Source: a virus
Lineage: Duplodnaviria; Caudoviricetes
Length of the DNA: 53,393 bases
IMG/VR virus record: IMGVR_UViG_3300031997_000012
Span: 1 to 53,393 of that record
Direction: 5' to 3' (one strand)
Both the position numbers and the translations under genes were made by a program. Shown in pieces: positions 3,384-19,156 of the stretch (its first letter is position 1; each line of letters starts with the position of its first letter). The notes below the pieces were generated by a model. The model was not told where the DNA came from and made no database searches. It was given only the letters and a program-made list of their open reading frames with translations.

Positions 3384-6128
3384 TCATTCAAATACCTTTG
3401 AAACTAAATCCTTTATTTCTTCTATGCCAACTGGTTTTCCAAGAATATATCCTACATTATACTTTGATCTCTCCTCATTAAAACCCGAAGAGCCCCAACC
3501 AGAAATAACTGCAACCTTCATAGGATATTTATCCTTAATCTCTTCAGCTAATTGCCAACCATTCATCTCTGGCATTCCTATATCCGTAATCATCAAATCA
3601 TACTTATTTCTTCTAAGCAATTCCAGGGCCTCCTTTCCACTACCAGCTACATCACCAGAATATCCCAAAATTTCTAAAAACATTTTACCTATATTTCTCA
3701 ATTCTACCTCATCATCTACCCATAACACTTTAGCAGTTTTAGAAATAGCAGCTTTCTTTTCTTTTTGAAATTTCTTCACTCCTAATGGAAATGTTAACTC
3801 CATTGTTGTTCCTTTACCAATCTCTGAATTTTTAACAAATATTTTTCCACCATGATCTCTAACAATTCCAAAAACAGCACTCATTCCGAGACCCCTGCCT
3901 ACTTCAAAACCTTTGGTTGTAAAGAATGGCTGAAAAATACGTTTTATGATGCTCTCATGCATTCCTATACCAGTATCAGAAATTCTAACACAAATTTCGT
4001 TATCTTCAATACTGGTTTCCAGAACTATCTTTCCACCATTAGGCATTGCTTCAAGCCCGTTCTTAATAACATTATGGAAAACACTAGTAAGTTCCCCTTC
4101 ATTTCCATCAATAAGCTCTATTTTTCCAAATGATTTCTGAATCGAAAATGTCAACCCTTTCTTTTCAGCACTATCTTTCCATAAAGGACGAAGTTGAAGA
4201 GTAACTTCATTCAGAATGTCATGCAAGTCTAAAGATTTATATACATTATTTTGTTCTTTTTGAGCAAATCGTTGAAGCTGCCGAACCCGAGCTGCGGCAT
4301 CCTTAGCCGCTCTTCTAGAAGAGTTGATAAAAGTAACTACTTCTTGAGAAAGATCCGGACTTAGTAATGCCAGATCCAAATTCCCAAAAATCATCTGAAG
4401 ACTATTATTAAAGTCGTGTGCAACTCCTATAGACATTTCCCCAACTGCAGCTAAACGTTCTGATTCCAGCAAAATCTTCTCAAGCTTCTTTTGCTCAGTA
4501 ATATCACGGATAATAACTACATCCGCCAGCTTTCCCTGCAAATGAATGATACTCCCACTTGTTTCAACAACTATTTTTTCCCCACTTTTTTTCACTAAAA
4601 TAATTTCAAATAATGGAGAAAGTTCTTTACCTAACATTCTCTTCTTATATCTTTCTAATACCAATTCCAAACTTTCAGATATAATAAAGTTTTTCAAAGG
4701 CATACCCTTAGCTTCTTCAACTGTATAACCCAACATATTTGTAAAGCCTGTATTTGAAAATTCAACAACACCGTCCTGTAATATCACAATAGCATCATTA
4801 GCTTTCTCAACAACTATTCTATACTTCTCTTCACTCTCCTGTAATGCCATATCAAGTTGCTTACGATCCGTAATATCCATAATAAATCCCTGAAATCCCG
4901 TTAATTCACCATCAGTAAATACTGGCAAACTATGCATACGAATAAAACATCTACTGCCATCACCTCTAAATAAAGAATATTCTGCTGGAGTTGTGACTCC
5001 TCCATTAATAATATTATTTACATTAATTTGCATACGTTCTCGATCTTCAGGTACTATCAAATCAAAACCATTCAGACCTCGTTCAAACTGTTCCTTTGTA
5101 TATCTGAATAACGAAAATGCTTTTCTGTTTACATATATCAATTTTCCGTTTCTATCCATCTCAAAAAGAGTTAAAGGTAATGATTCAGCGAAGTTTTGAA
5201 ACCTCTCTTCTTTTTCATTTAAAATCTTATCGACTTTCAACTTCTGATTAGTAACATCTCTAACAATACCATAAAACCCTATCGATTTACCTAAACTATT
5301 TTTTAGTAAAGATACCGAGGTCTCAACATATCGTTTCATCCCATCTTTTGTAATAATCTCCCAATCGAATTCTTTAGTGGGTTCCCCTGTTTTGTAAACT
5401 TTATTGAAGGCTCGAAACAATTTTTTACGTTCCTCTTGATCTGTGTATTGTTGGTTACCCATACCCATCATTTCATCTTTGGAGTAACCCAACATTCGGC
5501 ACAGAGAATCATTAAAGAAGGTGAAATTACCGGCAATATCCACCTCAAAGTAGCCCTCCTCAATGTTTTCAAGAATCGTTCGATATTTCTTCTCACTTTC
5601 TAACAGAACCCCCTCTACCTGGACTAACTCAGTGACATCATGACCAATACCCCGAAATCCAATTGGATTGCCCTTTTTATCCAGCATTAAAGATGCTGTC
5701 AATTGATGAAAATTATGAGTTCCATCTTTTTTAATCACTTCATAACCAAACTTTCTTACTGATTTTCCTGTTTTATAAATTTGTTCAAAAACAGAAAAGA
5801 TTTCCTTAGCTGATTTTGGAGACATATAGTCTCTGTTGTTCATCCCAATCAGTTCATCCTTAGAATATCCCAGAATATTCACCAATGCATTATTAAAAAA
5901 TACAAAATTACCTTTAAGATCAACCTCGAAATATGCCTCATTTATGCTTTCTAGAAGATTTTGATACTTCTCCTTAGATTCAAAGAAAGCATTTTCCTCT
6001 AAGTTGCGTCGCAAAAGTTCAGTAGCATCATGTCCCATGCCACCAAAAAAATAACACTTCTCATCTTCTGTCTCAAAATATTCTTTAGTAATATTAATTA
6101 CTTTCTTATTTTTGAAATTCAAGTCCAT
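3384..6128 (-). CDS. Cytoplasmic hybrid sensor histidine kinase (4 PAS + HisKA + HATPase + receiver)
   Basis: Four PAS/PAC repeats; H-box GVAHDFNN; N-box NVIKNGLEAM; DTGIGM; FQPFFTTK; GRGLGMS; receiver VDDE...TDIGMPEMNG...GKP; no transmembrane segment. Confidence 0.95.
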   Translation of the reverse strand: MDLNFKNKKVINITKEYFETEDEKCYFFGGMGHDATELLRRNLEENAFFESKEKYQNLLESINEAYFEVDLKGNFVFFNNALVNILGYSKDELIGMNNRDYMSPKSAKEIFSVFEQIYKTGKSVRKFGYEVIKKDGTHNFHQLTASLMLDKKGNPIGFRGIGHDVTELVQVEGVLLESEKKYRTILENIEEGYFEVDIAGNFTFFNDSLCRMLGYSKDEMMGMGNQQYTDQEERKKLFRAFNKVYKTGEPTKEFDWEIITKDGMKRYVETSVSLLKNSLGKSIGFYGIVRDVTNQKLKVDKILNEKEERFQNFAESLPLTLFEMDRNGKLIYVNRKAFSLFRYTKEQFERGLNGFDLIVPEDRERMQINVNNIINGGVTTPAEYSLFRGDGSRCFIRMHSLPVFTDGELTGFQGFIMDITDRKQLDMALQESEEKYRIVVEKANDAIVILQDGVVEFSNTGFTNMLGYTVEEAKGMPLKNFIISESLELVLERYKKRMLGKELSPLFEIILVKKSGEKIVVETSGSIIHLQGKLADVVIIRDITEQKKLEKILLESERLAAVGEMSIGVAHDFNNSLQMIFGNLDLALLSPDLSQEVVTFINSSRRAAKDAAARVRQLQRFAQKEQNNVYKSLDLHDILNEVTLQLRPLWKDSAEKKGLTFSIQKSFGKIELIDGNEGELTSVFHNVIKNGLEAMPNGGKIVLETSIEDNEICVRISDTGIGMHESIIKRIFQPFFTTKGFEVGRGLGMSAVFGIVRDHGGKIFVKNSEIGKGTTMELTFPLGVKKFQKEKKAAISKTAKVLWVDDEVELRNIGKMFLEILGYSGDVAGSGKEALELLRRNKYDLMITDIGMPEMNGWQLAEEIKDKYPMKVAVISGWGSSGFNEERSKYNVGYILGKPVGIEEIKDLVSKVFE

Positions 6129-6616: not shown

Positions 6617-6973
6617 CTATTCTACTGCGAAAGAACGTCCAAACCGTTTCTTCACATTTACCAGTCTGCCATACTGGAAATCCTTAAAAAAATGCTTTTC
6701 TATATTAGACGATACTTCGCTCCAGGCAGCATCCACCTCCTTGATAACCTCCGTAGTCCTTATGGCCAACTCCTCAGCTATAAACTTTCCAAGGAAATCT
6801 CTTCTATGCTCACAAAAATAACCATCATCGTGCATACACACTACTCCATATTTCAACCAATCAGTGGGACGAGGTACATCTAAGGAAACAAGATGTGCAA
6901 AATAATCAACTTCTTCCTTCACAGGTAATTCTTCAGCTAACCGAATCTCCCAAGACTCTAAATCTCTAATCAT
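6617..6973 (-). CDS. Hypothetical protein with C-terminal KRFGRSF motif
   Basis: Track ORF 6617-7027; the ATG at 6973 has an AAGGAG RBS. Confidence 0.65.
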   Translation of the reverse strand: MIRDLESWEIRLAEELPVKEEVDYFAHLVSLDVPRPTDWLKYGVVCMHDDGYFCEHRRDFLGKFIAEELAIRTTEVIKEVDAAWSEVSSNIEKHFFKDFQYGRLVNVKKRFGRSFAVE

Positions 6974-7023
6974 TTCTTTTTTCTCCTTTCTTTGGTAGAT
7001 CATACCAGATTCAAATGTAATGC

Positions 7024-8937
7024 TCAACTTCCAAAATAATCAGAATAACTCATTAATTTTACACCAAATTTCTGTGCTTTTTGTAACTTAGAAGAATTAG
7101 AATTAGGATCTTCACACACTAAAATATTTGTTTCTTTACCAACATGATCTACAAATGTATCTCCTTTTTTCTGAATTTCAACTATCAATTCGTTTCTTGT
7201 TTTAGGTCCCTTTCCTGTCATGCATACATTTCTAGCTCCCATTTTAACCTCCTGTGGTTTTTGAATTTTCACTATCTGTAAAAGTTTTTTTACATAGGAT
7301 TTATTTTCAGAAAGATACTCCATTAAATTTCTGCCAATAACAAATGTAGAATCATTAAAATTCAACAATTGTTCCACTGTGGTTATCCCTAATTTTTTCA
7401 TTGCCTTTTCGCCAACGAGGTCAATACCTAATCTATCTACAAACTGTCCTATAGACATATATCTAGTAGAATCAATTTGATTTAAAGCATTTTCTATTTT
7501 TTTAGACCCAAATCCTTCAACGCTTTCAAAATCCTTTGCCTTAAGTGAATAAAGGCTAACTATATCTCTAAGTAATCCAACCTTAAATAGGGCGCGAACC
7601 GATGCTTCTGAAAACTGTTCCATTTCACAGCACTTAACCCAATGAACTATTTTAAGAATCTGTTGTTCTTCACACTCGTCATTTAAACATACCAAATGAA
7701 CCCCTGATTCTAATAGTTTACCACCACAAGACGAGCAACATTCAGGTATAAGATTCGATTTTCTATTACTATCCATAGAAAGATTATTTTTAAAAAATGG
7801 AATAACATCACCTGCTCTTTCTATAAAAATTTTATCCCCTACATTAAGTCTTAATTTCAAAACGTTTTCATAATTATTTAAAGTACATCTGGAAACATTT
7901 GAACCACCTAAAACAACTGTTTTAACTAAAGCTACAGGAATGACTTTACCCTGCCTTGAAACATTCCATTCAATTCCCTCTAAAACAGTTTCTTTACCTT
8001 GCGAAGGTGGTTTTAAAGCCATATTATAGTGATGATGATGAGAAACTTCATACTTAGAATCAATCTCTCCCCAAAACTTATTATTATTTACAGTAAAAAC
8101 TAAACCATCAGATTCATAGTTCCAACTATCCCTTAATTCATTAAGATACAAATTATATAATGCAGTTATAAAATCAGAATTAATTGGCTTTTCAATAGGT
8201 CTTAACATTCTATAGTTTTGCTTCAGACTTTCTAAGCTAAATAACTTCCACCAAACAGTCTCAAAATTATTTTCTATAAGCCATTTCATTTTATAAGATT
8301 CTACACTCGTCAAATATCTCAAATTAAATTCTGTCTGATAAGCTACAAAATGTAGATAACGTAAATCTTCTAATCCATTATCTTTTCTATTAATGAGCCC
8401 AACTGCAAGATTTCTTAACGGCTTATTTTCTGGATTTGATAACAATGTATTTTTAGGAAGATACAACTCTCCCCGAACTTCGATAGGAACCACTCTATTA
8501 ATTTTATTTAGATTAATTTTATTTGGAATATTAGTAAATTTTGAAATGTGAGTAATATTTTGCCCTACATTTCCGTCACCTCTTGTTTTTATCATTACCA
8601 ACTTACCTTTTTCATAAACCACAGAGCACGATAAACCATCAACCTTAGATTGAACGATAAAATCTTCATTCTGAATCTCTATTTTCTTTATCCAGACTAA
8701 AATATCATCAACTGTTTTACCCTTTTGTAAAGATAGCATTGGTATTGCATGCTTTACTTTTTCCTTTATATTTCCAGTACCAACTATCGTAAAATAATCA
8801 TTATCAGGATCTAATCCTCTCAACTCATCCTCAAGATGATCAAATTCATCATCGCTTATAACAGATTTACCTAGATTATAATAAGCATCCTTGCAAGATT
8901 GTAACTTATTTACTATTTGTTGAATTTCTTGTTTCAT
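7024..8937 (-). CDS. ligA: NAD+-dependent DNA ligase
   Basis: YYN...ISDDEFD, H.IPMLSL, KVDG adenylation motif, TRGDG, EVRGE, DGLV, OB fold, Cys4 zinc finger, HhH and C-terminal BRCT. Start set at ATG 8937 (AAGGAGG RBS); the track's 35-aa extension overlaps the tRNA-like element. Confidence 0.95.
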   Translation of the reverse strand: MKQEIQQIVNKLQSCKDAYYNLGKSVISDDEFDHLEDELRGLDPDNDYFTIVGTGNIKEKVKHAIPMLSLQKGKTVDDILVWIKKIEIQNEDFIVQSKVDGLSCSVVYEKGKLVMIKTRGDGNVGQNITHISKFTNIPNKINLNKINRVVPIEVRGELYLPKNTLLSNPENKPLRNLAVGLINRKDNGLEDLRYLHFVAYQTEFNLRYLTSVESYKMKWLIENNFETVWWKLFSLESLKQNYRMLRPIEKPINSDFITALYNLYLNELRDSWNYESDGLVFTVNNNKFWGEIDSKYEVSHHHHYNMALKPPSQGKETVLEGIEWNVSRQGKVIPVALVKTVVLGGSNVSRCTLNNYENVLKLRLNVGDKIFIERAGDVIPFFKNNLSMDSNRKSNLIPECCSSCGGKLLESGVHLVCLNDECEEQQILKIVHWVKCCEMEQFSEASVRALFKVGLLRDIVSLYSLKAKDFESVEGFGSKKIENALNQIDSTRYMSIGQFVDRLGIDLVGEKAMKKLGITTVEQLLNFNDSTFVIGRNLMEYLSENKSYVKKLLQIVKIQKPQEVKMGARNVCMTGKGPKTRNELIVEIQKKGDTFVDHVGKETNILVCEDPNSNSSKLQKAQKFGVKLMSYSDYFGS

Positions 8938-8957
8938 GTTAAACCTCCTTAATAAGA

Positions 8958-9035
8958 TTGAGAGGGGAGGATTCGAACCTCCAAAGGCATCGCCAACAGA
9001 TTTATATTCCCCTTTGGCCGCTCGGGAACCTCTCC
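8958..9035 (-). pseudogene. tRNA-Tyr-like pseudogene with collapsed anticodon arm
   Basis: GGAGAGGTTCCCGAGCGGCCAAAGGGGAATATAAATCTGTTGGCGATGCCTTTGGAGGTTCGAATCCTCCCCTCTCAA: Tyr-type D arm, long variable arm and intact T arm; about 4 nt missing from the 5' anticodon stem; G1-A72 mismatch; no CCA. Confidence 0.85.
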
Positions 9036-9042
9036 AAAGCAT

Positions 9043-9351
9043 CTACCCCACTTCTACCATCCTAAACAACCTTTTTTTGCCAAAATTAGTAGTACCATAT
9101 TTTGGATTTTTCAAAACTACACTATCCTTTTGCTGCCAAACAGGATCCGAATGTTTCTGAAAAATACTGCTTGCTAAATCACTCACTCCTTTTGTATGTT
9201 TACAGATTCTATTGCTATGCATAATCCATCCCGGACAGTTGCAAGTTAATAAACCATCTGCATGAAGTTGCGTTTCATAAACTGTTGTTCCGGCACTTGA
9301 ACTAAATGCCCACGCTGAAATAACTGGTCCGTAATTTCCACCTACTTTCAT
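9043..9351 (-). CDS. SWIM-type zinc-finger protein
   Basis: SSS...YET...LTCNCPGW...ICKH (CxC...CxH). Confidence 0.75.
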   Translation of the reverse strand: MKVGGNYGPVISAWAFSSSAGTTVYETQLHADGLLTCNCPGWIMHSNRICKHTKGVSDLASSIFQKHSDPVWQQKDSVVLKNPKYGTTNFGKKRLFRMVEVG

Positions 9352-9376
9352 TTCATTCTCCTTTCATTTTTCATAG

Positions 9377-9622
9377 TTATTTTTTTGGCTGGTAGTATAG
9401 AACATAGTTTTCATTTTCATAGATCACTTCCTTCTTCGTCCATCTATTCCACCTTAAACCACAATCTGGACATTGCCAAAAGGAAACCCCATCATATAAA
9501 AGAGGATCTTCTATACCAATTAATCTAGAATAACGTTTTCCGTCATAAATAACAAATAAATTTGTTTGACAAGCCGGGCAAACTTCCCAATCTTCTTCCA
9601 CGTCTTTTTTCCTTTTTTTCAT
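9377..9622 (-). CDS. Zn-ribbon hypothetical protein
   Basis: CPAC...SRLIGIE...YDGVSFWQCPDCG..WNRWT, a pattern common in small phage proteins. Confidence 0.7.
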   Translation of the reverse strand: MKKRKKDVEEDWEVCPACQTNLFVIYDGKRYSRLIGIEDPLLYDGVSFWQCPDCGLRWNRWTKKEVIYENENYVLYYQPKK

Positions 9623-9626
9623 TTTT

Positions 9627-9929
9627 TCACCATTCCAAATCATCAAGTGTATATAAACACAGATTCTTACCTATACATAATATGTGCTTTAAATACGTAT
9701 CTTCACTATGATCACCACTTAAAAAATAATCTAAATCATGGATTCTTTTATATGACAATTCTAATGACTGATAAAGATCAAACATTTCTGCCAAAATTTC
9801 CTTTGGAAGTTTTTTCTTAAACTCACCCTCTGAATATGAAGATCTTTGACCTTTAATATATTCTAATCTAATTGATTCTGCGATATCATTTATTCTATAT
9901 TCTTGATAATCAAAATATCCTCCACTCAT
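9627..9929 (-). CDS. Hypothetical phage protein (MSGGYFDY... type)
   Basis: ATG at 9929 with GGAGG RBS; ends ...DYFLSGDHSEDTYL. Confidence 0.7.
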   Translation of the reverse strand: MSGGYFDYQEYRINDIAESIRLEYIKGQRSSYSEGEFKKKLPKEILAEMFDLYQSLELSYKRIHDLDYFLSGDHSEDTYLKHILCIGKNLCLYTLDDLEW

Positions 9930-10105
9930 TTTTCTTCCTCCTTTCTGTAGAGCCATTCTTTTTCAATAAAGTTAGCCCCAGAAATTCCACGTCTAAATCC
10001 AAGTCTAAATGCGAACTCAACCTTTTCATCTTCTCCAAGAACATCCCACTGATTATATCCATCAGCTATCTCATTCCATTCTTTAACAATTTCAATATAT
10101 CTCAT
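9926..10105 (-). CDS. Hypothetical protein
   Basis: AAGGAG RBS; EWNEIADGYNQWDVLGEDEKVEFA. Confidence 0.65.
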   Translation of the reverse strand: MRYIEIVKEWNEIADGYNQWDVLGEDEKVEFAFRLGFRRGISGANFIEKEWLYRKEEEK

Positions 10106-10116
10106 ATTCACTCCTT

Positions 10117-10698
10117 TCAAAATTTGTAACTTCCGTTTGATTTTCTAACTTTAAACATATATTTTACTGTCGGACTAGATGTATAACCCAGTTCCAGTTT
10201 TGCATCCAATTTTTTCATAACTAAACCCTCTATTTCTGGTAATTTCGTATATTCATCAAAAACTTTCTTAAAGTCAGATAAATAAAATTCTGTTGGTGTA
10301 ACACTTTCTTGTTTACTACCAAAAAGTTTTTCTAATTCTGCCCTCCTTTCTCTAAACTGAAGTGACTTTAAACTCACTCCATTAGATATAAACATGTCCC
10401 ACAATACTATATGATGTCTAATTCCTTTAACTTTATTGTGTCTAAGCTCTCCATTAACTACACAATAACCAGCCCAACTCATGTTTTGAAGGTCACTTAA
10501 AACTTCTTTCGAAGGTTCATAGTTAAACTTTAATCCATAACGATTCCAAAATTCAAATCTACCATCCTCAAATCTATGAAGAACTAAATTGTTTCCATTA
10601 TATTTCAACTCAGCAATAACATTTAGATCATCGTTCAGTTGACTAAATAAAGGCTGATCAATTGAAATAAGGGTTGGTTTTGGTGGGTAGAATATCAT
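10117..10698 (-). CDS. ATP-dependent ligase-like adenylation domain protein (no OB fold)
   Basis: ELKYNG, WNR, VNGEL, LWDMF, ERR, IEGLVMKK, MFKVR; only 193 aa. Confidence 0.8.
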   Translation of the reverse strand: MIFYPPKPTLISIDQPLFSQLNDDLNVIAELKYNGNNLVLHRFEDGRFEFWNRYGLKFNYEPSKEVLSDLQNMSWAGYCVVNGELRHNKVKGIRHHIVLWDMFISNGVSLKSLQFRERRAELEKLFGSKQESVTPTEFYLSDFKKVFDEYTKLPEIEGLVMKKLDAKLELGYTSSPTVKYMFKVRKSNGSYKF

Positions 10699-10710
10699 AA
10701 TTTTATCCTC

Positions 10711-10800
10711 CTAAGTTTTCGGTATTTTCAACCTTAAATTTCGTTTAAATCTACCTGATACCTCAATCTCCTTCTTAGAATCAAACTTTCTACTTTTCAC
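10711..10800 (-). CDS. 29-aa microprotein carrying the GRFKRNLR motif
   Basis: Not in track. GTG at 10800 with AAGGAG upstream; MKSRKFDSKKEIEVSGRFKRNLRLKIPKT; fills the gap between the AAA+ and ligase-like genes; octapeptide identical to the 12771-13751 C-terminus with synonymous-only changes. Confidence 0.7.
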   Translation of the reverse strand: MKSRKFDSKKEIEVSGRFKRNLRLKIPKT

Positions 10801-12412
10801 TTGCCGCCAATCTCCTTAAATAAACTGGATCCTTCCCCGACTTTGTCGTTGCCTTTCCAGAAGCCAATCGGGCTTTTTTACCCTCACCCCATTCACTTCT
10901 TAAAGATTCAATTTTATCTTTCATCGTTTCCGACAAAGGCACTGTTTGTTTTAGCGCCTTAACAACATCATCACCTGTTAATTTTCTACTACCCTCAGAA
11001 AAACAAACCGTAAGACCTTGCACAATTGCCTGTTCAATCTCTGCACCAGTATAATTAGCAGATTCAATAGCAATGTTTTTAAATTCATCTGGCTTTAAAT
11101 TTCTTTGAATTAACTTCCCATCCTCTTCATAAGGACGTTTACATACATGAATTTTTGCAATAGCTAATCTCTCTGCCTCGTTTGGAAGATCCACAAAAAA
11201 TATTTCATCAAATCTTCCTTTTCTTAGTAACTCTGGAGGTAACTTGGATACATCATTAGCTGTAGCCACAATAAATACTTGACTCGTTTTTTCTTGCATC
11301 CAAGTAAGAAGCGTCCCCATAACCCTTGAGGTAACACCAGAGTCTAATTCTCCAGATGAATTCGCACCAGCCATTCCCTTCTCTATTTCATCGATCCACA
11401 AAATACAAGGGGCAACTACATCAGCAATTTCTGTAACCTTTCTCGCTTTACCCTCTGACTCGCCCATAAGTTTTGTAAAAACTTTGCCGACATCCAATCT
11501 ATAAAGACCAATCTGCCAATTAGAAGCACAGGCTTTTGCAATTGCAGATTTCCCACAGCCGCTAATACCAACTAAAAGAATTCCCTTTGGAGACGGCAGA
11601 CCAAATTGGCGAGCAGGCCCACTAAAAATTGATTCTCTTTGAATCAGCCATTCTTTTAAAGAATCTAACCCGCCAATATCCTCCAATTTATCCTTCGTAT
11701 CAATATACTCCAAAATACCATCCTTCTTTAAAATCTGACATTTCTGATCTAAAACCGTCTTAATGGAATCACCATCTAGATTAAAATTTTTAATAATTGC
11801 CAACGAAAATGCATCCTCTGACTCCTGGTATGTTAACCCTAAAGCTGCATCAATAACTTTTTCCTTTACATCATTTGAAATTAGTGATTCTGTGTCCCTA
11901 GAAGAGCTTATAATAAAATCTAGACACTCTCTTAATTCCGCTCTTTCAGGAAAAGGTAAGTCAATAACGCTGATAACTTTTTCTAACTCTATAGGAATTT
12001 TAAGGTCAGGAGAAATAAATACAACAATCTTACCCACGTTTTTAAGAATGTCAAGAGAATTTTTTAATCCTCTAATAACAGCTGGATTTTCCATATGGTA
12101 ATTAAAATCCAGCACACATAATACAGTAGTTTCACGATAGGAAGAACTAGCAAATATACTAAATAACTTTGAAGGATCATCTGCAGTTTTCTTTATCGGA
12201 GAAGCAGGCTGGTCTTCGGAATCAATATACTGAATAATTTCGCCATTGAAATCCCAATACTGAAGAGAGCCTTTACTCGTCTTCACAATCTTATTTATGA
12301 TTTTTAGAGCTCGTGCTTCTTCATAAGTTCTGACCCAAATAACAGAAATGCACGCTTTATACATATAATCAAAATTCTTTTCAAATTTTTGTTGCCCACT
12401 TTCTTCGATCAT
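10790..12412 (-). CDS. Ycf46-like AAA+ ATPase
   Basis: Degenerate first AAA domain; IGGLDSLKEWL; Walker A GISGCGKS; Walker B LWIDEIEK; ATAN; LPPELLRKGRFDEIFFVDLP. Confidence 0.9.
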   Translation of the reverse strand: MIEESGQQKFEKNFDYMYKACISVIWVRTYEEARALKIINKIVKTSKGSLQYWDFNGEIIQYIDSEDQPASPIKKTADDPSKLFSIFASSSYRETTVLCVLDFNYHMENPAVIRGLKNSLDILKNVGKIVVFISPDLKIPIELEKVISVIDLPFPERAELRECLDFIISSSRDTESLISNDVKEKVIDAALGLTYQESEDAFSLAIIKNFNLDGDSIKTVLDQKCQILKKDGILEYIDTKDKLEDIGGLDSLKEWLIQRESIFSGPARQFGLPSPKGILLVGISGCGKSAIAKACASNWQIGLYRLDVGKVFTKLMGESEGKARKVTEIADVVAPCILWIDEIEKGMAGANSSGELDSGVTSRVMGTLLTWMQEKTSQVFIVATANDVSKLPPELLRKGRFDEIFFVDLPNEAERLAIAKIHVCKRPYEEDGKLIQRNLKPDEFKNIAIESANYTGAEIEQAIVQGLTVCFSEGSRKLTGDDVVKALKQTVPLSETMKDKIESLRSEWGEGKKARLASGKATTKSGKDPVYLRRLAASEK

Positions 12413-12413
12413 A

Positions 12414-12740
12414 TCAATCTCCTTTCTTAATTAAGATCGGTCTTAACATCCTTCCAAAACGAACTGCTGACGGTTCAATAACTGTCCATGACTTTACTTC
12501 CTCGCGAATCCGTGTTTCCACTTCGATGAGCTGCTTCAGGAACTTCTCTTTTCCCTCAACAGGTCGCCGTTCTGGATCACATACATTACATTTATATACG
12601 TATTTAATCCACCTCCCTCTTCTTTCATAAGTACGAGATCTTTTGTCTCCCTTTCGCATAACAGAACCGCACTGTTCACACTTCGTTTTTCTTTTACAGA
12701 TTTCATAGTCTTTTGCTTTAGGTGATCTCATGAATAACAT
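12414..12740 (-). CDS. Basic Zn-finger hypothetical protein with C-terminal VRFGRMLR motif
   Basis: CEQC...CNVC; AAGGAG RBS. Confidence 0.7.
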   Translation of the reverse strand: MLFMRSPKAKDYEICKRKTKCEQCGSVMRKGDKRSRTYERRGRWIKYVYKCNVCDPERRPVEGKEKFLKQLIEVETRIREEVKSWTVIEPSAVRFGRMLRPILIKKGD

Positions 12741-12770
12741 ATTTTTCTCCTTTCAAAAAGCTTAAAGTGT

Positions 12771-13751
12771 TCAGTTCTGAGTTACTCTTAAATTTCGCTT
12801 AAACCTTCCCAGAACTTTATCCATATCCACTGACATAACTGATTCCTCAAGACTCTTTATTTCTAAGTTTAAAGCATCTTTAAACGATTCATTAGACAAG
12901 TCACTCTTACTAACACTATCCAACTTTTCTTCAAGCTGACTTATATGTTGAATTATCTCAGTATCCACAAAATCCATTGACTTAAAAGACTCAGCAAACT
13001 TTTTAAATGAATTTATGGTTTTCATACTAAGACAATCTTTTTCTGTTCTTTCTTTCATGTTCTTAACTGACTTTAAAACCATGTACTTTAATCGAGAAAC
13101 AACTTCTTCTAAAAATAAATCTAACTTCTGACTTACTTTCTCCCGATAAAGATTCTCCATTTCTGCTTTGCCTAAAGCAGCATCAGTCCCAAGTTTAGAA
13201 AATTCAGGAGACGTTACTTCAAATAAATCTAATTCAAACTTAAACTTTTTCCCCAAATCTTCCTTTAGCGGAAACTTATCCCTTAATTTAGAAAGAACAA
13301 TCTCCTTCTTACGCTGTAATATCTCCCCAGAATACTTCTTGGAAAGAATTTCTTCAAACATACCTTCATACTCATCAAGCATTTGACTTCTATCCTGTTC
13401 ATAACCCTCAAGAAATTTTCTTACCTCAAAATAAAAATCCTCCTCAAAAAGTCTTATTTTCTCCACAGTATCCTGTAAACGAGCATAAGGAACAAACCTT
13501 GCTGACCCAAATGGAAACGAAAACGAATTTTGAATTAAAACATTACACGCTTTTTGACGAATTGACCAAATCGACTCCAATCTTTCCTTCTTTGATAGAC
13601 GTTTATGACCTAAAGAAATCTTATCTTTAGGAATGTTTTCTAACCCCAAATCTTCAGCTTTCAACTGAGTTGCGGCACCCCAGATTGAAAAGGATAAATC
13701 AGCTACAACACCAGCCTTATACAAATCAAAATTCATAGATTCATTTTTCAT
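12771..13751 (-). CDS. DUF3150-like coiled-coil protein
   Basis: DLSFSIWGA..L.AEDLGL...SLGHKRL...FPFG.ARFVP pattern and position next to a Ycf46-like ATPase; ends GRFKRNLRVTQN. Confidence 0.65.
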   Translation of the reverse strand: MKNESMNFDLYKAGVVADLSFSIWGAATQLKAEDLGLENIPKDKISLGHKRLSKKERLESIWSIRQKACNVLIQNSFSFPFGSARFVPYARLQDTVEKIRLFEEDFYFEVRKFLEGYEQDRSQMLDEYEGMFEEILSKKYSGEILQRKKEIVLSKLRDKFPLKEDLGKKFKFELDLFEVTSPEFSKLGTDAALGKAEMENLYREKVSQKLDLFLEEVVSRLKYMVLKSVKNMKERTEKDCLSMKTINSFKKFAESFKSMDFVDTEIIQHISQLEEKLDSVSKSDLSNESFKDALNLEIKSLEESVMSVDMDKVLGRFKRNLRVTQN

Positions 13752-13769
13752 ATCATTCTCCTTTTTAGG

Positions 13770-13871
13770 TTATCTACCTTGTCTAAGCAGAGTTTTATAT
13801 CTTCGTTCACCTTTTACCATGTGTCTTCCACAAGTTTTACATTTCGTTAATCGTTGACAAGTTTCCCACAT
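13770..13871 (-). pseudogene. Truncated paralog (33 aa) of the 12414-12740 Zn-finger gene
   Basis: MWETCQRLTKCKTCGRHMVKGERRYKTLLRQGR aligns with YEICKRKTKCEQCGSVMRKGDKRSRTYERRGR but stops before the second CxxC. Confidence 0.55.
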
Positions 13872-14034
13872 GAGATCCCCCTTCCAAAACTTCTAATTCA
13901 TCACCACGAAAAAGAAGTCTTTTTCTAGAGTCGAGTTCAACCATCCAGTGAAATGGATAAACAGAACCATGGATTGCCACAATTTTTCCAAGCCTTCCAT
14001 TCCAAGAAATTTTAACCTCATCTCCTAATTTCAT
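13837..14034 (-). CDS. Small KOW/SH3-like hypothetical protein
   Basis: MKLGDEVKI...GRLGKIVAI...WMVELD...FRGDELEV; GGAG RBS at ATG 14034. Confidence 0.6.
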   Translation of the reverse strand: MKLGDEVKISWNGRLGKIVAIHGSVYPFHWMVELDSRKRLLFRGDELEVLEGGSHVGNLSTINEM

Positions 14035-14075
14035 ATTTTCTCCTTCCTTTATTAGAACAAAAAATTGATCAAGAA

Positions 14076-14219
14076 TTATCCACACCAGGGATTTGAAATT
14101 GAACATAATATGTGGTCACAAGTTTTTTCTTCACATAGATTACAAAATAATTCTTTTATTTCAGGAGTCCACCAATCTGTTGAAACTTCATTTCCATAAA
14201 TTTCTAATTGAATTTCCAT
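14076..14219 (-). CDS. Cys-rich microprotein (47 aa)
   Basis: Not in track. AGGAG RBS; MEIQLEIYGNEV...FCNLCEEKTCDHILCSISNPWCG. Confidence 0.55.
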   Translation of the reverse strand: MEIQLEIYGNEVSTDWWTPEIKELFCNLCEEKTCDHILCSISNPWCG

Positions 14220-14227
14220 ACTTTCTC

Positions 14228-14410
14228 CTATCCGTAAATTTTTACTCCCTCTACTTTACGATAATCATCTTTAAAAATTCTTGACTTTGCTTTACCCAAA
14301 ATATCATCTAACCAAATCAAATCTTTAACACACTTCTGACCTACAAAACCTATAGCTTCAACTTTTACTGTTCCATCAGACATAATTTCTATTGTTACTT
14401 TTTCTCTCAT
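14228..14410 (-). CDS. DUF2997-like protein
   Basis: IEIMSDGTVKVEAIGFVGQKC...LG; typical partner of DUF1257 and Ycf46-like ATPases. Confidence 0.8.
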   Translation of the reverse strand: MREKVTIEIMSDGTVKVEAIGFVGQKCVKDLIWLDDILGKAKSRIFKDDYRKVEGVKIYG

Positions 14411-14454
14411 GTAAACCTCCTTCTGCAGATGATATTTTATTATGTTTCTTTTTA

Positions 14455-14628
14455 TTAAATCTTTGAAAATCGACTCAAAGGATTGTTATCTTCTAAAATT
14501 TTTCTAATTTGTTCCAATTCACTAACTATTTTGTTAATTCGAAATACCCACTGAATAATTCCCATGGCTATTCCAAATATTCCTAAAAAAATAATCGATA
14601 ATGCAATTAGTTGGCCTTCATTACTCAT
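14455..14628 (-). CDS. Small membrane protein (57 aa)
   Basis: Not in track. AAGGAG RBS; MSNEGQLIALSIIFLGIFGIAMGIIQWVFRINKIVSELEQIRKILE... Confidence 0.6.
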   Translation of the reverse strand: MSNEGQLIALSIIFLGIFGIAMGIIQWVFRINKIVSELEQIRKILEDNNPLSRFSKI

Positions 14629-14661
14629 AGTCTTTCTCCTTTCGATTTTTATTTTTTTTTG

Positions 14662-14820
14662 TTATTCAGTGACCGCTTCAATTAAATCAGAACATGCCGG
14701 ACATAACGGTCTAAATGGATCATCATCATCACTCATTCCAAATGGAAAATATGTTGCTAGTATTTTAGGAAACCAACGTTCGCATTGATAACACACGAGC
14801 TTTTGTATTATTTTTTTCAT
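14662..14820 (-). CDS. Zn-finger microprotein
   Basis: CYQC...CPAC; AGGAGG RBS at ATG 14820. Confidence 0.6.
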   Translation of the reverse strand: MKKIIQKLVCYQCERWFPKILATYFPFGMSDDDDPFRPLCPACSDLIEAVTE

Positions 14821-14830
14821 CTTATCCTCC

Positions 14831-15019
14831 TTAGTTTTCAAAAATGTTTCGTGAATATTTAACCCTATTAAATCTCTCGTACCCGTCGTCATGATTCATA
14901 ATTACATCCGCCAAAATCTCATCTTTTTTTACTACTACGTTCACCACCTTGATCCCACTACATCCAGTTTGTAACTTTTCATGTTTAATAATGCTTTCTT
15001 TTATTCTCGCCTTGTCCAT
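14831..15019 (-). CDS. Hypothetical protein
   Basis: Track ORF with GAGG RBS, in operon context. Confidence 0.6.
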   Translation of the reverse strand: MDKARIKESIIKHEKLQTGCSGIKVVNVVVKKDEILADVIMNHDDGYERFNRVKYSRNIFEN

Positions 15020-15035
15020 AGTTCCTCATCTCCTT

Positions 15036-15416
15036 TCATCTACTTAGTGTTACTAATGTAGTTCCCTTCTCTGTATCTTTTCTCGTAATAAAAAATCCAT
15101 ACCCTTTTGCCTTCTTTGCAATTTTATGAAAAGTAGCACCCTGTTTCAGTTTACAACAATCTTTTCCCAACTTTCTTTCAACATGACCTCCATAAGAATC
15201 ATAAACTAAATCATAGTTTCCTGTAATCTTATTTTTAAGTAAACCTACGTCGTAAGGCGTTCCTTCCCAAGAAATTACATAATCAGCCTTAGAAGGCGTG
15301 GAATAGTAATGCCTAACAGAACCCCCTTCTATTATCGTTAACCCTAACTCCCTGCAAAAATCCCGAATAGAATCAATATCGTTTAATTGTGAATTATAAG
15401 TTGTTAAATGACTCAT
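15036..15416 (-). CDS. DUF1257 (Ycf35-like) protein
   Basis: MSH.T....L.D...I...C.ELG...VR.Y...AD.VI...YDVGL...G.YDLVYD.Y...KLKQ. Confidence 0.8.
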   Translation of the reverse strand: MSHLTTYNSQLNDIDSIRDFCRELGLTIIEGGSVRHYYSTPSKADYVISWEGTPYDVGLLKNKITGNYDLVYDSYGGHVERKLGKDCCKLKQGATFHKIAKKAKGYGFFITRKDTEKGTTLVTLSR

Positions 15417-18703: not shown

Positions 18704-19156
18704 TCCCCATCGAACCGTTAGGCATAAGGGCTTAGTTTATTTCGCCAAAGAAAAAATATTTTCAAAAAGTCTCTGTCCTCCAAAAGCTATCCCCATCGAA
18801 CCGTTAGGCATAAGGGTCACACTCTCAAATTTCTTCGAGCCGTGCTTAGCATTAGCATCTTTAATCCAATGACTTAACCTTGCTACTGGAGTTCGGTTAT
18901 TTAAAACCTGCGTTTTTTCTGAGTGCCGCTACCACCCATCCCTTATCATAAAGAATAACTTCATCTGAACTCTTTTTATCTTGGGATATCCATAGAACGT
19001 TTGGTTACTCAGTGATACTACCCTCTTAAAAAAAATGCCACTTCCCAATTTGTCCAGCAACCAAATTAAAATCCGTATCTTGCTTACCTTTCGGCATTAG
19101 GACTTTTATTTGGACTTATGCTAACCTCCCATTGAACTCTTCTGAGCATTAGGAGG
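18704..19156 (-). ncRNA. Structured leader RNA with a repeated stem/internal-loop motif
   Basis: Identical 27-mers CCCTTATGCCTAACGGTTCGATGGGGA (18704-18730, 18790-18816); covarying copy CCTCCTAATGCTCAGAAGAGTTCAATGGGAGG (19125-19156); variant GTCCTAATGCCGAAAGGT...GGAT (19071-19103); no long ORF. Confidence 0.55.

Follow-up and report, generated by a model that had tools for sequence, protein, structure and literature searches.

A shared near-C-terminal peptide in a phage AAA+ gene module and a 29-residue reading frame that is most likely a gene stub

Why should unrelated proteins encoded close to one another in a phage genome carry nearly the same short peptide near their C-termini, and what is a 29-residue open reading frame (ORF) among their genes that carries the same peptide? 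The question arises in IMG/VR record IMGVR_UViG_3300031997_000012, a linear virus record of 53,393 bases that we analyzed whole and refer to as the window, and in which the minus strand holds nearly all long ORFs. A gene module around a Cdc48/p97-like AAA+ ATPase lies there, and a first-pass annotation made from the sequence proposed that the peptide is a phage-encoded docking or recognition code for the ATPase or another hub, with the 29-residue ORF supplying a free tag peptide that acts as competitor or adaptor. We find that the motif exists, lies near the C-terminus, is conserved in orthologues and changes together across families. The observation behind the proposal is confirmed and a docking code is the best hypothesis for it, while the free-peptide reading is probably wrong; the window most likely documents how such a tail can persist in the form of a gene stub.

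The shared tail in the window and in its relatives

The closest likeness is between the end of a DUF3150-family protein and the 29-residue ORF. The DUF3150 protein (326 amino acids (aa), 12771-13751, minus strand; Pfam PF11348, 72.9 bits, E = 3.3 × 10−20, residues 15-283) ends ...VLGRFKRNLRVTQN, with the tail GRFKRNLRV encoded at 12783-12809, and the 29-residue ORF (10711-10800, minus strand) reads ...EVSGRFKRNLRLKIPKT, with the motif GRFKRNLRL encoded at 10729-10755. Eight residues, GRFKRNLR, are common to both, and codon comparison confirmed that four of their eight codons differ, each synonymously and at the third position (GGA/GGT, AGG/AGA, AAG/AAA, AGA/AGG). Outside these codons, identity between the DUF3150 end and the 29-residue ORF is at chance level. 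The DUF3150 protein had been described as ending in GRFKRNLRV; the string is present, but the motif sits 3-5 residues before the C-terminus and not at the very end.

Looser versions of the tail lie near the C-termini of four further proteins encoded on the minus strand. A Zn-ribbon-like protein without a Pfam family (108 aa, 12414-12740) carries VRFGRMLRP seven residues before its end (RFGRMLRP encoded at 12438-12461), a Cys/His-rich protein of 136 aa (6617-7027) has the tail KRFGRSFAVE (RFGRSFAV at 6623-6646), and a SWIM-like CxC..CxH protein (102 aa, 9043-9351) has KKRLFRMVEVG (KKRLFRMV at 9055-9078). The name SWIM is a label taken over from the first-pass annotation; Pfam gives this protein no family at E ≤ 0.01. 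The ATPase itself (540 aa, 10790-12412; PF00004, E = 1.2 × 10−28) has a weak version, VYLRRLAASEK (YLRRLAA at 10802-10822). All tail strings quoted by the annotation were verified in the minus-strand sequence, including the two it had called weak, KRLFRMVEV in the SWIM-like protein and VYLRRLAA in the ATPase. The KRFGRSFAV tail is likewise present, but its ORF runs from 6617 to 7027 and not, as had been given, from 6617 to 6973.

With the pattern RF[GK]R.[LF], which was defined post hoc from data already seen, four occurrences were found in 79 minus-strand ORFs, each at most nine residues from the end and none elsewhere; 2000 residue shuffles never gave four (mean 0.0025). Loose patterns yielded 1.6-3 near-stop matches in six-frame translations of shuffled DNA, so they are not significant, and since such matches are expected in shuffled DNA, tiny segments near stops were not counted as tails. 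One such segment, of 18 aa in the early leader (18820-18873, minus strand) and ending ..ARRNLRV, was considered as a third copy and rejected, given a profile E value of 2.2 and loose patterns that are as frequent in shuffled DNA.

We compared the window with 32 loci of relatives, 31 from a metagenome scan and one distant locus from a viral-contig scan with a DUF3150 alignment; scans of genome contigs found no relative. A DUF3150 search gave 18 proteins including the window's own, at 22-91% identity, and G-[RK]-[FY]-[KR]-R stands near the end in 17 of them, with R319 invariant and G315 present in at least 90%, in a tail that lies outside the stretch matched by Pfam. The near-C-terminal tail is not confined to this family: it also occurs in orthologues of all four unrelated families (DUF3150, SWIM-like, Zn-ribbon and ATPase), in related metagenomic phages at 40-57% identity. 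Tails of the type K/R-R-[LM]-[LI]-[RN] were present in seven of seven SWIM-like homologues (for example ..RGSKRLLRALP.., ..EIRGSKRLLRALPTE, ..EFRGSKRMLRAVPVSDLK and ..KFRNHRMIRVEVAQG), and both Zn-ribbon homologues keep the tail, as KPKRLLRP in locus L039 (..KPKRLLRPILEKEDL) and KPKRMLRC in L041 (..FKPKRMLRCVE..). The ATPase tails of relatives read ..GGFVKRKLRV (L041), ..GGFKRKLRA (L038) and FLGGRSMRPV.. (L042, ..FLGGRSMRPVNPETK). Across relatives the motif lies 3-21 residues before the C-terminus.

Among 603 ORFs of the window and the 32 loci, 19 matches to the pattern [KR]R.[LIMF]R fall in the last 30 residues, against 13 at all other positions, a 6.6-fold enrichment per residue; the C-terminal enrichment in homologous loci that the first-pass annotation had envisaged is thus present. 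Seventeen of the 19 C-terminal matches belong to the DUF3150, SWIM-like, Zn-ribbon and ATPase families, and the other two fall in a 48-aa Arg-rich ORF in L036 and a 229-aa ORF in L047. The 136-aa protein appears to be a weaker case for a shared tail than these families. Nine representatives of it were found and seven read, and a similar end was seen among these seven only in the nearest distinct homologue (P0025, ..YFARLLSVEQED..), the five remote homologues having no such end. A variant of the protein in the protein library (P0024) has Q at the window's stop codon (6617-6619) and four more residues, reading ..AVEQKLF where the window reads AVE-stop-KLF-stop.

In a set of 35 more distant ATPase loci from IMG/VR, tails are spelled differently between loci and alike inside one locus. 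In L016, L020 and L022 the ATPase carries ..RSINLN or ..RAINLN and the DUF3150 protein ..RAILLD, ..RAVLLD or ..RAVVLD; in L048 the DUF3150 protein has ..YRLLNLD.. alongside ..KRLLNLG in the SWIM protein, and in L057 an ATPase with ..LGRAAQG stands alongside a DUF3150 protein with ..GRMGRAAAL. Taking as the score the best ungapped 6-mer match in the C-terminal 22 residues of each pair, we obtained a mean of 16.1 for ATPase and DUF3150 tails from one locus and of 12.6 for tails from different loci (permutation P = 0.006; 11 loci, one near-duplicate dropped).

The 29-residue ORF and the edges of its gene block

The 29-residue ORF overlaps the last 11 nucleotides (nt) of the ATPase gene in another frame, and its stop codon overlaps the ribosome-binding site of the next gene, 12 nt further on, which encodes a ligase-like protein of 193 aa (10117-10698, minus strand) comprising only the adenylation domain of an ATP-dependent ligase (PF01068, E = 6.9 × 10−11). 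It starts with GTG, with AAGGAG 11 nt upstream; in neighbouring genes this spacing is 7-8 nt and the start is ATG. Using a profile of the last 24 DUF3150 columns, built from 17 homologues with the window's own protein excluded, we found the ORF to be the second-best of 2511 six-frame segments (E = 0.0012; next, 2.2), the match comprising the eight core residues only. Contigs from two other runs are identical to the window over 10370-10871 and 10600-10750, so the frame layout is not one assembly's error; the contigs that cover the ORF are all of this identical kind.

The first-pass annotation had treated the ORF as a product in its own right. It is absent from the relatives compared, none of which is a close one with the same junction. 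Among the relatives, seven include the ATPase 3' end together with downstream DNA, and a small tail-bearing ORF follows the ATPase in none of them (0/7). A six-frame scan of the 32 loci likewise found no counterpart, the strict motif occurring once per locus, at the DUF3150 end, in 10 loci. Pattern scans of IMG/VR DNA for the motif codons returned nothing, or one chance match inside a 1351-aa gene in another frame.

Gene order sets the window apart as well. The ATPase lies upstream of DUF3150 in 11 loci and the window's order recurs only in L039, which means that 11 of the 12 relatives with both genes differ from the window. In L037 and L043, DUF3150 is followed directly by the homologue of the 193-aa ligase-like gene (32 and 326 nt from stop to start, respectively), and the place where the DUF3150 3' end lies in these two loci, just before the ligase-like gene, is the place that the 29-residue ORF occupies in the window. 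A second fragment adjoins DUF3150 on its upstream side. This 33-residue ORF (13770-13871, minus strand), an N-terminal fragment of a Zn-ribbon gene, is identical at 16 of 32 residues to residues 12-43 of the 108-aa Zn-ribbon protein (E = 2 × 10−9), stops after the first CxxC, and matches a 205-aa homologue in L041 (blastp, E = 7 × 10−7). Neither its exact sequence nor that of the 29-residue ORF was found among the called proteins of a large collection, a look-up that is weak for the latter, whose query had V for GTG. An 89-aa ORF nearby (13837-14106, minus strand) was considered as the C-terminal half of the L041 205-aa protein and rejected (E = 0.51). The layout of the window is therefore Zn-ribbon fragment, DUF3150, Zn-ribbon, ATPase, tail-bearing ORF and ligase-like gene. 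Inside the Zn-ribbon gene, 58 nt (12500-12557) are richer in G+C than their surroundings; foreign contigs of three runs match this stretch with 1-2 differences, with flanks unlike the window, and its 32-nt core has no exact match in IMG/VR.

The ATPase is complete without the ORF, because its frame-0 end aligns with the ends of relatives in both sequence and length: DPVYLRRL corresponds to KPTFLRGI and KPTFLGGRSMRPV, and 22 residues follow ASGK, compared with 23-28 in relatives. Together with the absence from relatives, the gene order and the second fragment at the other edge, this points to the scar of a cassette swap. The 29-residue ORF is most likely not a free tag peptide but what remains of the 3' end of a tail-bearing gene that was displaced, with DUF3150 the likeliest source. 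In the simplest history, a block with L039-like order (DUF3150, Zn-ribbon, ATPase) would have replaced the middle of an L043-like arrangement, displacing an older order of Zn-ribbon, ATPase, further genes and DUF3150 and leaving the gene ends at its two margins. Of a tail-bearing gene from another lineage, the final 8-10 codons would have stayed before the ligase-like gene, and the 33-residue Zn-ribbon fragment would be the stub at the other edge of the block.

The Zn-ribbon copies share only 50% identity and the tail cores differ at half of their third positions, which suits two diverged parents better than a recent duplication. The four synonymous differences would date back to a period in which each copy still formed the end of a working gene, and the synonymous-only pattern would then reflect how selection acted on the DUF3150 tail of each parent and not any constraint on the small ORF. 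The first-pass annotation was right that the pattern indicates selection on the peptide, but that selection may have acted while the stub still ended a full-length DUF3150 protein elsewhere. Its free peptide, acting as competitor or adaptor, is disfavored by the lack of the ORF in relatives, the DUF3150-end position, the second truncated gene at the block edge and start signals that look weak. The case carries a caution: a short motif whose copies differ only synonymously is no proof that the small ORF around it is a gene.

Proposed docking tails and competing explanations

In sequence, the ATPase matches phrog_8638 (E = 1.6 × 10−137) and p97 (E = 1.6 × 10−49). Its AlphaFold2 model, built with 38 sequences, has a predicted local distance difference test score (pLDDT) of 88, with residues 522-540 disordered (pLDDT ~41). 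Foldseek aligned about 560 columns of this model to p97/Cdc48 D1-D2 chains (E = 2.5 × 10−24), with a template modeling score of about 0.6 to chains consisting of D1-D2 only. The Pfam AAA match is confined to residues 278-408; residues 1-210 look like a degenerate AAA-like first tier, where the order of strands and helices and the Foldseek alignment match p97 D1 while Pfam finds no AAA domain. On the strength of these matches and the disordered end, the enzyme is predicted to be a two-tier Cdc48-like ATPase whose first tier is degenerate and which has a flexible tail but lacks a separate N domain. The DUF3150 model combines a small sheet with long helices (pLDDT 77), and a Foldseek search with it gave no PDB match at E ≤ 0.001.

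Our best hypothesis is a short linear docking motif that this lineage spells [F/G]-x-[K/R]-R-x-[L/I]-R-[V/A/P], in many cases with acidic residues after it. The motif would ride on the flexible C-terminal tails of otherwise unrelated proteins of one early gene module, which consists of the Cdc48/p97-like ATPase and the DUF1257, DUF2997, DUF3150, SWIM-like and Zn-ribbon proteins. All tails would plug into one phage-encoded receptor site, and the ATPase and its partners would assemble on, or compete for, one hub. The first candidates for the receptor are the DUF1257 and DUF2997 proteins, conserved module members that have no tail when C-termini are compared across loci; the ATPase rings come second. 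The alternation in R-x-L-R-V would suit the addition of a strand to the edge of a sheet, and because the spelling differs between phages, the reader should co-evolve with the tails and be phage-encoded. A complex prediction for ATPase residues 1-515, DUF1257 and DUF2997 with the last 42 residues of DUF3150, run without controls, gave a score of 0.00 and a mark of 0.32, which speaks neither for nor against binding. The recognition code put forward by the annotation is supported as far as the tails go, by their presence on orthologues of four families and the closer likeness of ATPase and DUF3150 tails within a locus; its reader, whether the ATPase or another hub, was not found. We lean, if by a little, toward the combined interpretation, in which the module shares a docking tail and the 29-residue ORF is a stub left by a swap.

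Several observations weigh against this interpretation. No result points to any binding partner of the tail, and the 11 co-variation loci are not phylogenetically independent, which makes them supporting evidence only. SWIM and DUF3150 tails gave no co-variation signal (P = 0.34), because all eight loci use one spelling, and the window ATPase tail is the weakest match to its own DUF3150 tail (score 9). As to the stub, the composition profile shows no block boundary in base composition. The eight-residue core is perfect though about half of its third positions have changed, while the flanks of the ORF have EVS where the family consensus has KVL, and L in place of V/P, as selection on the tail core alone would also bring about. 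The ORF has an open frame that begins at a GTG preceded by AAGGAG, and the motif sits 5-7 residues before the end of the ORF, like real tails. Another family's tail could also be the source of the stub, such as that of an ATPase with the end GGFKRKLRA.

Some of these features would be expected if the ORF, a stub at first, had come to be expressed as a micro-protein, its free tail competing with docking or regulating it: an 8/8 core in which all differences are synonymous, two flanks that are both unlike the family, the open frame and its upstream AAGGAG, and the tail-like position of the motif. Its location in the operon fits the same idea, with the ATPase gene on one side, the ligase-like gene on the other and no site resembling a terminator or a promoter found nearby. 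We consider it unlikely, given that none of the seven relatives and none of the 32 loci has the ORF, that its start is a GTG with a long 11-nt spacer, that the look-up among called proteins, weak as it was, did not return it, and that in AT-rich DNA an open stretch of 34 codons that overlaps a coding region is nothing out of the ordinary. A bolder version is more doubtful still: the tails would form a peptide address code with one phage receptor, perhaps DUF1257/DUF2997, for which the ATPase and changing clients or adaptors compete, and the stub would have been re-used as a free 29-residue tail that tunes receptor occupancy. If that were true, the ORF would be a micro-protein regulator born from a gene scar. 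Alternatively, the ATPase might properly continue into the ORF as a C-terminal extension, either by a +1 frameshift or because a one-base error in the A run of GAAAAG conceals the continuous frame. The ORF lies in the +1 frame and overlaps the ATPase stop, dropping one A would fuse the two frames, and the window ATPase has the weakest tail of its group, the ATPases of relatives ending in canonical tails. We hold this to be very improbable: the frame-0 end already matches that of relatives, the same bases stand in the contigs of two other runs, GAA-AAG-TAG offers no re-pairing slippery site for a +1 shift, and homologue lengths of 542-591 aa need no extension.

Other explanations concern the tail itself. 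It could be a degradation or unfolding tag, with the Cdc48-like ATPase or a host protease unfolding or removing the tagged proteins, which would suit an ATPase closest to the substrate-threading unfoldases p97/Cdc48 and tails that are disordered ends of the kind unfoldases grip. That the ATPase itself bears the tail in L041 and L038 better suits a docking element than a substrate tag; moreover, the tagged set is the conserved module core and not a changing list of targets, and the motif is internal, unlike end-dependent degrons. These points make a tag a rather improbable account. Compositional chance, or a basic patch that binds nucleic acid without a specific reader, seems to us barely tenable. 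Loose regular expressions do find near-stop matches in shuffled DNA, and the tails are rich in Arg and Lys in this lineage, but the motif is conserved in orthologues of four families, real ORFs show the C-terminal enrichment, none of the 2000 shuffles reaches the count in the window, and other lineages keep the position with a non-basic spelling (..RSINLN, ..RAILLD), unlike a plain charge patch.

The gene module and known systems

The DUF1257, DUF2997, DUF3150 and AAA+ ATPase genes all lie within 10790-15416 on the minus strand, with Pfam matches above the curated cut-offs: PF06868 for the DUF1257 protein (126 aa, 15036-15416; 29.9 bits, cut-off 22.2) and PF11211 for the DUF2997 protein (60 aa, 14228-14410; 29.1 bits, cut-off 24.1), besides those given above. 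PHROGs holds no family for the DUF3150, Zn-ribbon, SWIM-like, DUF1257 and DUF2997 proteins, and a PDB sequence search with the DUF1257 protein returned nothing below E = 0.33. A small Cys-rich protein of the module (47 aa, 14076-14219, minus strand, in the window; 47-79 aa overall) has N-P-[WY]-C-G at its very C-terminus in the window copy and in five of five relatives (L039, L041, L043, L046, L054), a second conserved terminal motif in the module. Beyond the ligase-like gene, three small ORFs lie between 9377 and 10120, and an NAD-dependent ligase is encoded between the SWIM-like and 136-aa proteins (7024-9042, minus strand). The ORF of this ligase is listed from 9042, but alignments to relatives start at about residue 42, so that translation probably begins at the internal MKQEIQQ. 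ARAGORN finds no tRNA in the whole window, although a tRNA look-alike had been noted upstream in this ORF. At the edge of the phage early region, a 914-aa ORF (3384-6128, minus strand) has PAS-like repeats and a kinase/receiver-like end.

Modules of this kind around an AAA+ unfoldase are widespread in phages and mobile elements and have no known function, and a conserved shared peptide offers an experimental handle on how they assemble. The tail system could also shed light on the long-orphaned ycf46 and ycf35 genes, and the stub shows how the exchange of modules may copy a tail or leave one behind, a plausible route by which new proteins could gain an address. We found no paper on this module or its tail, judging by titles and abstracts; the literature on DUF3150 was unrelated, and that on DUF2997/DUF1257 named the families in passing and did not deal with phages. 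For Ycf46 and phage, a passage in one paper concerns an unrelated SGI1 antitoxin (PMC10954446).

Among known systems, the nearest in gene content is the Ycf46 (AAA+), Ycf35 (DUF1257) and DUF2997 set of cyanobacteria and plastids, with its mobile-element versions that include DUF3150: the same Pfam families (PF00004, DUF1257, DUF2997, DUF3150) stand together on one strand. The Ycf46 name for the window ATPase is a label that comes from the first-pass annotation and from general knowledge, not from a sequence match, and the gene set is not known to have an established function. The phage copy differs in lying in the early region beside ligases and a primase-like gene, in adding the SWIM-like and Zn-ribbon proteins, and perhaps also in the shared tail.

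The HbYX tails of PAN, Rpt subunits, archaeal Cdc48 and Blm10 are alike in that an AAA+ unfoldase and unrelated partners share a short C-terminal docking peptide. HbYX is formed by the three final residues, which include a Tyr and end in a free carboxylate, and plugs into receptor pockets. The tails of the window end ..RVTQN, ..RPILIKKGD, ..RMVEVG and ..AASEK, with no penultimate Tyr; the phage motif has no Tyr and is followed by 3-21 more residues, and no 20S-like receptor was seen. Cofactors of p97/Cdc48 offer a second parallel, with Arg/Leu peptides on unrelated proteins and a Cdc48-type ATPase to which the phage enzyme is similar in predicted fold. The Arg-rich VBM and VIM and the SHP box bind the p97 N domain, and the C-terminal tail of p97 is bound by PUB and PUL domains. 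The phage ATPase model, by contrast, aligns with D1-D2 only and has no separate N domain, and the phage ATPase is itself tailed. Nor do the tails resemble ssrA/ClpX-type degrons, since no protein here ends ..LAA-COOH and the LAA of the ATPase lies three residues before its end.

Clamp-binding peptides and the tails of single-stranded DNA-binding proteins are alike in a different respect, many proteins of DNA metabolism meeting at one hub through a short terminal peptide. A pentapeptide like Q-L-[SD]-L-F, the bacterial clamp-binding consensus, is absent from the tails, and the phage spelling varies by phage, which suggests a phage-encoded reader rather than a conserved host hub. For the 29-residue ORF, the closest parallel is with gene remnants at the mosaic junctions of phages, which likewise consist of truncated pieces of two genes at the edges of a block whose gene order is unlike that of most relatives. 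It differs from them in that it keeps exactly the functional peptide and an open frame, so that later re-use would be possible.

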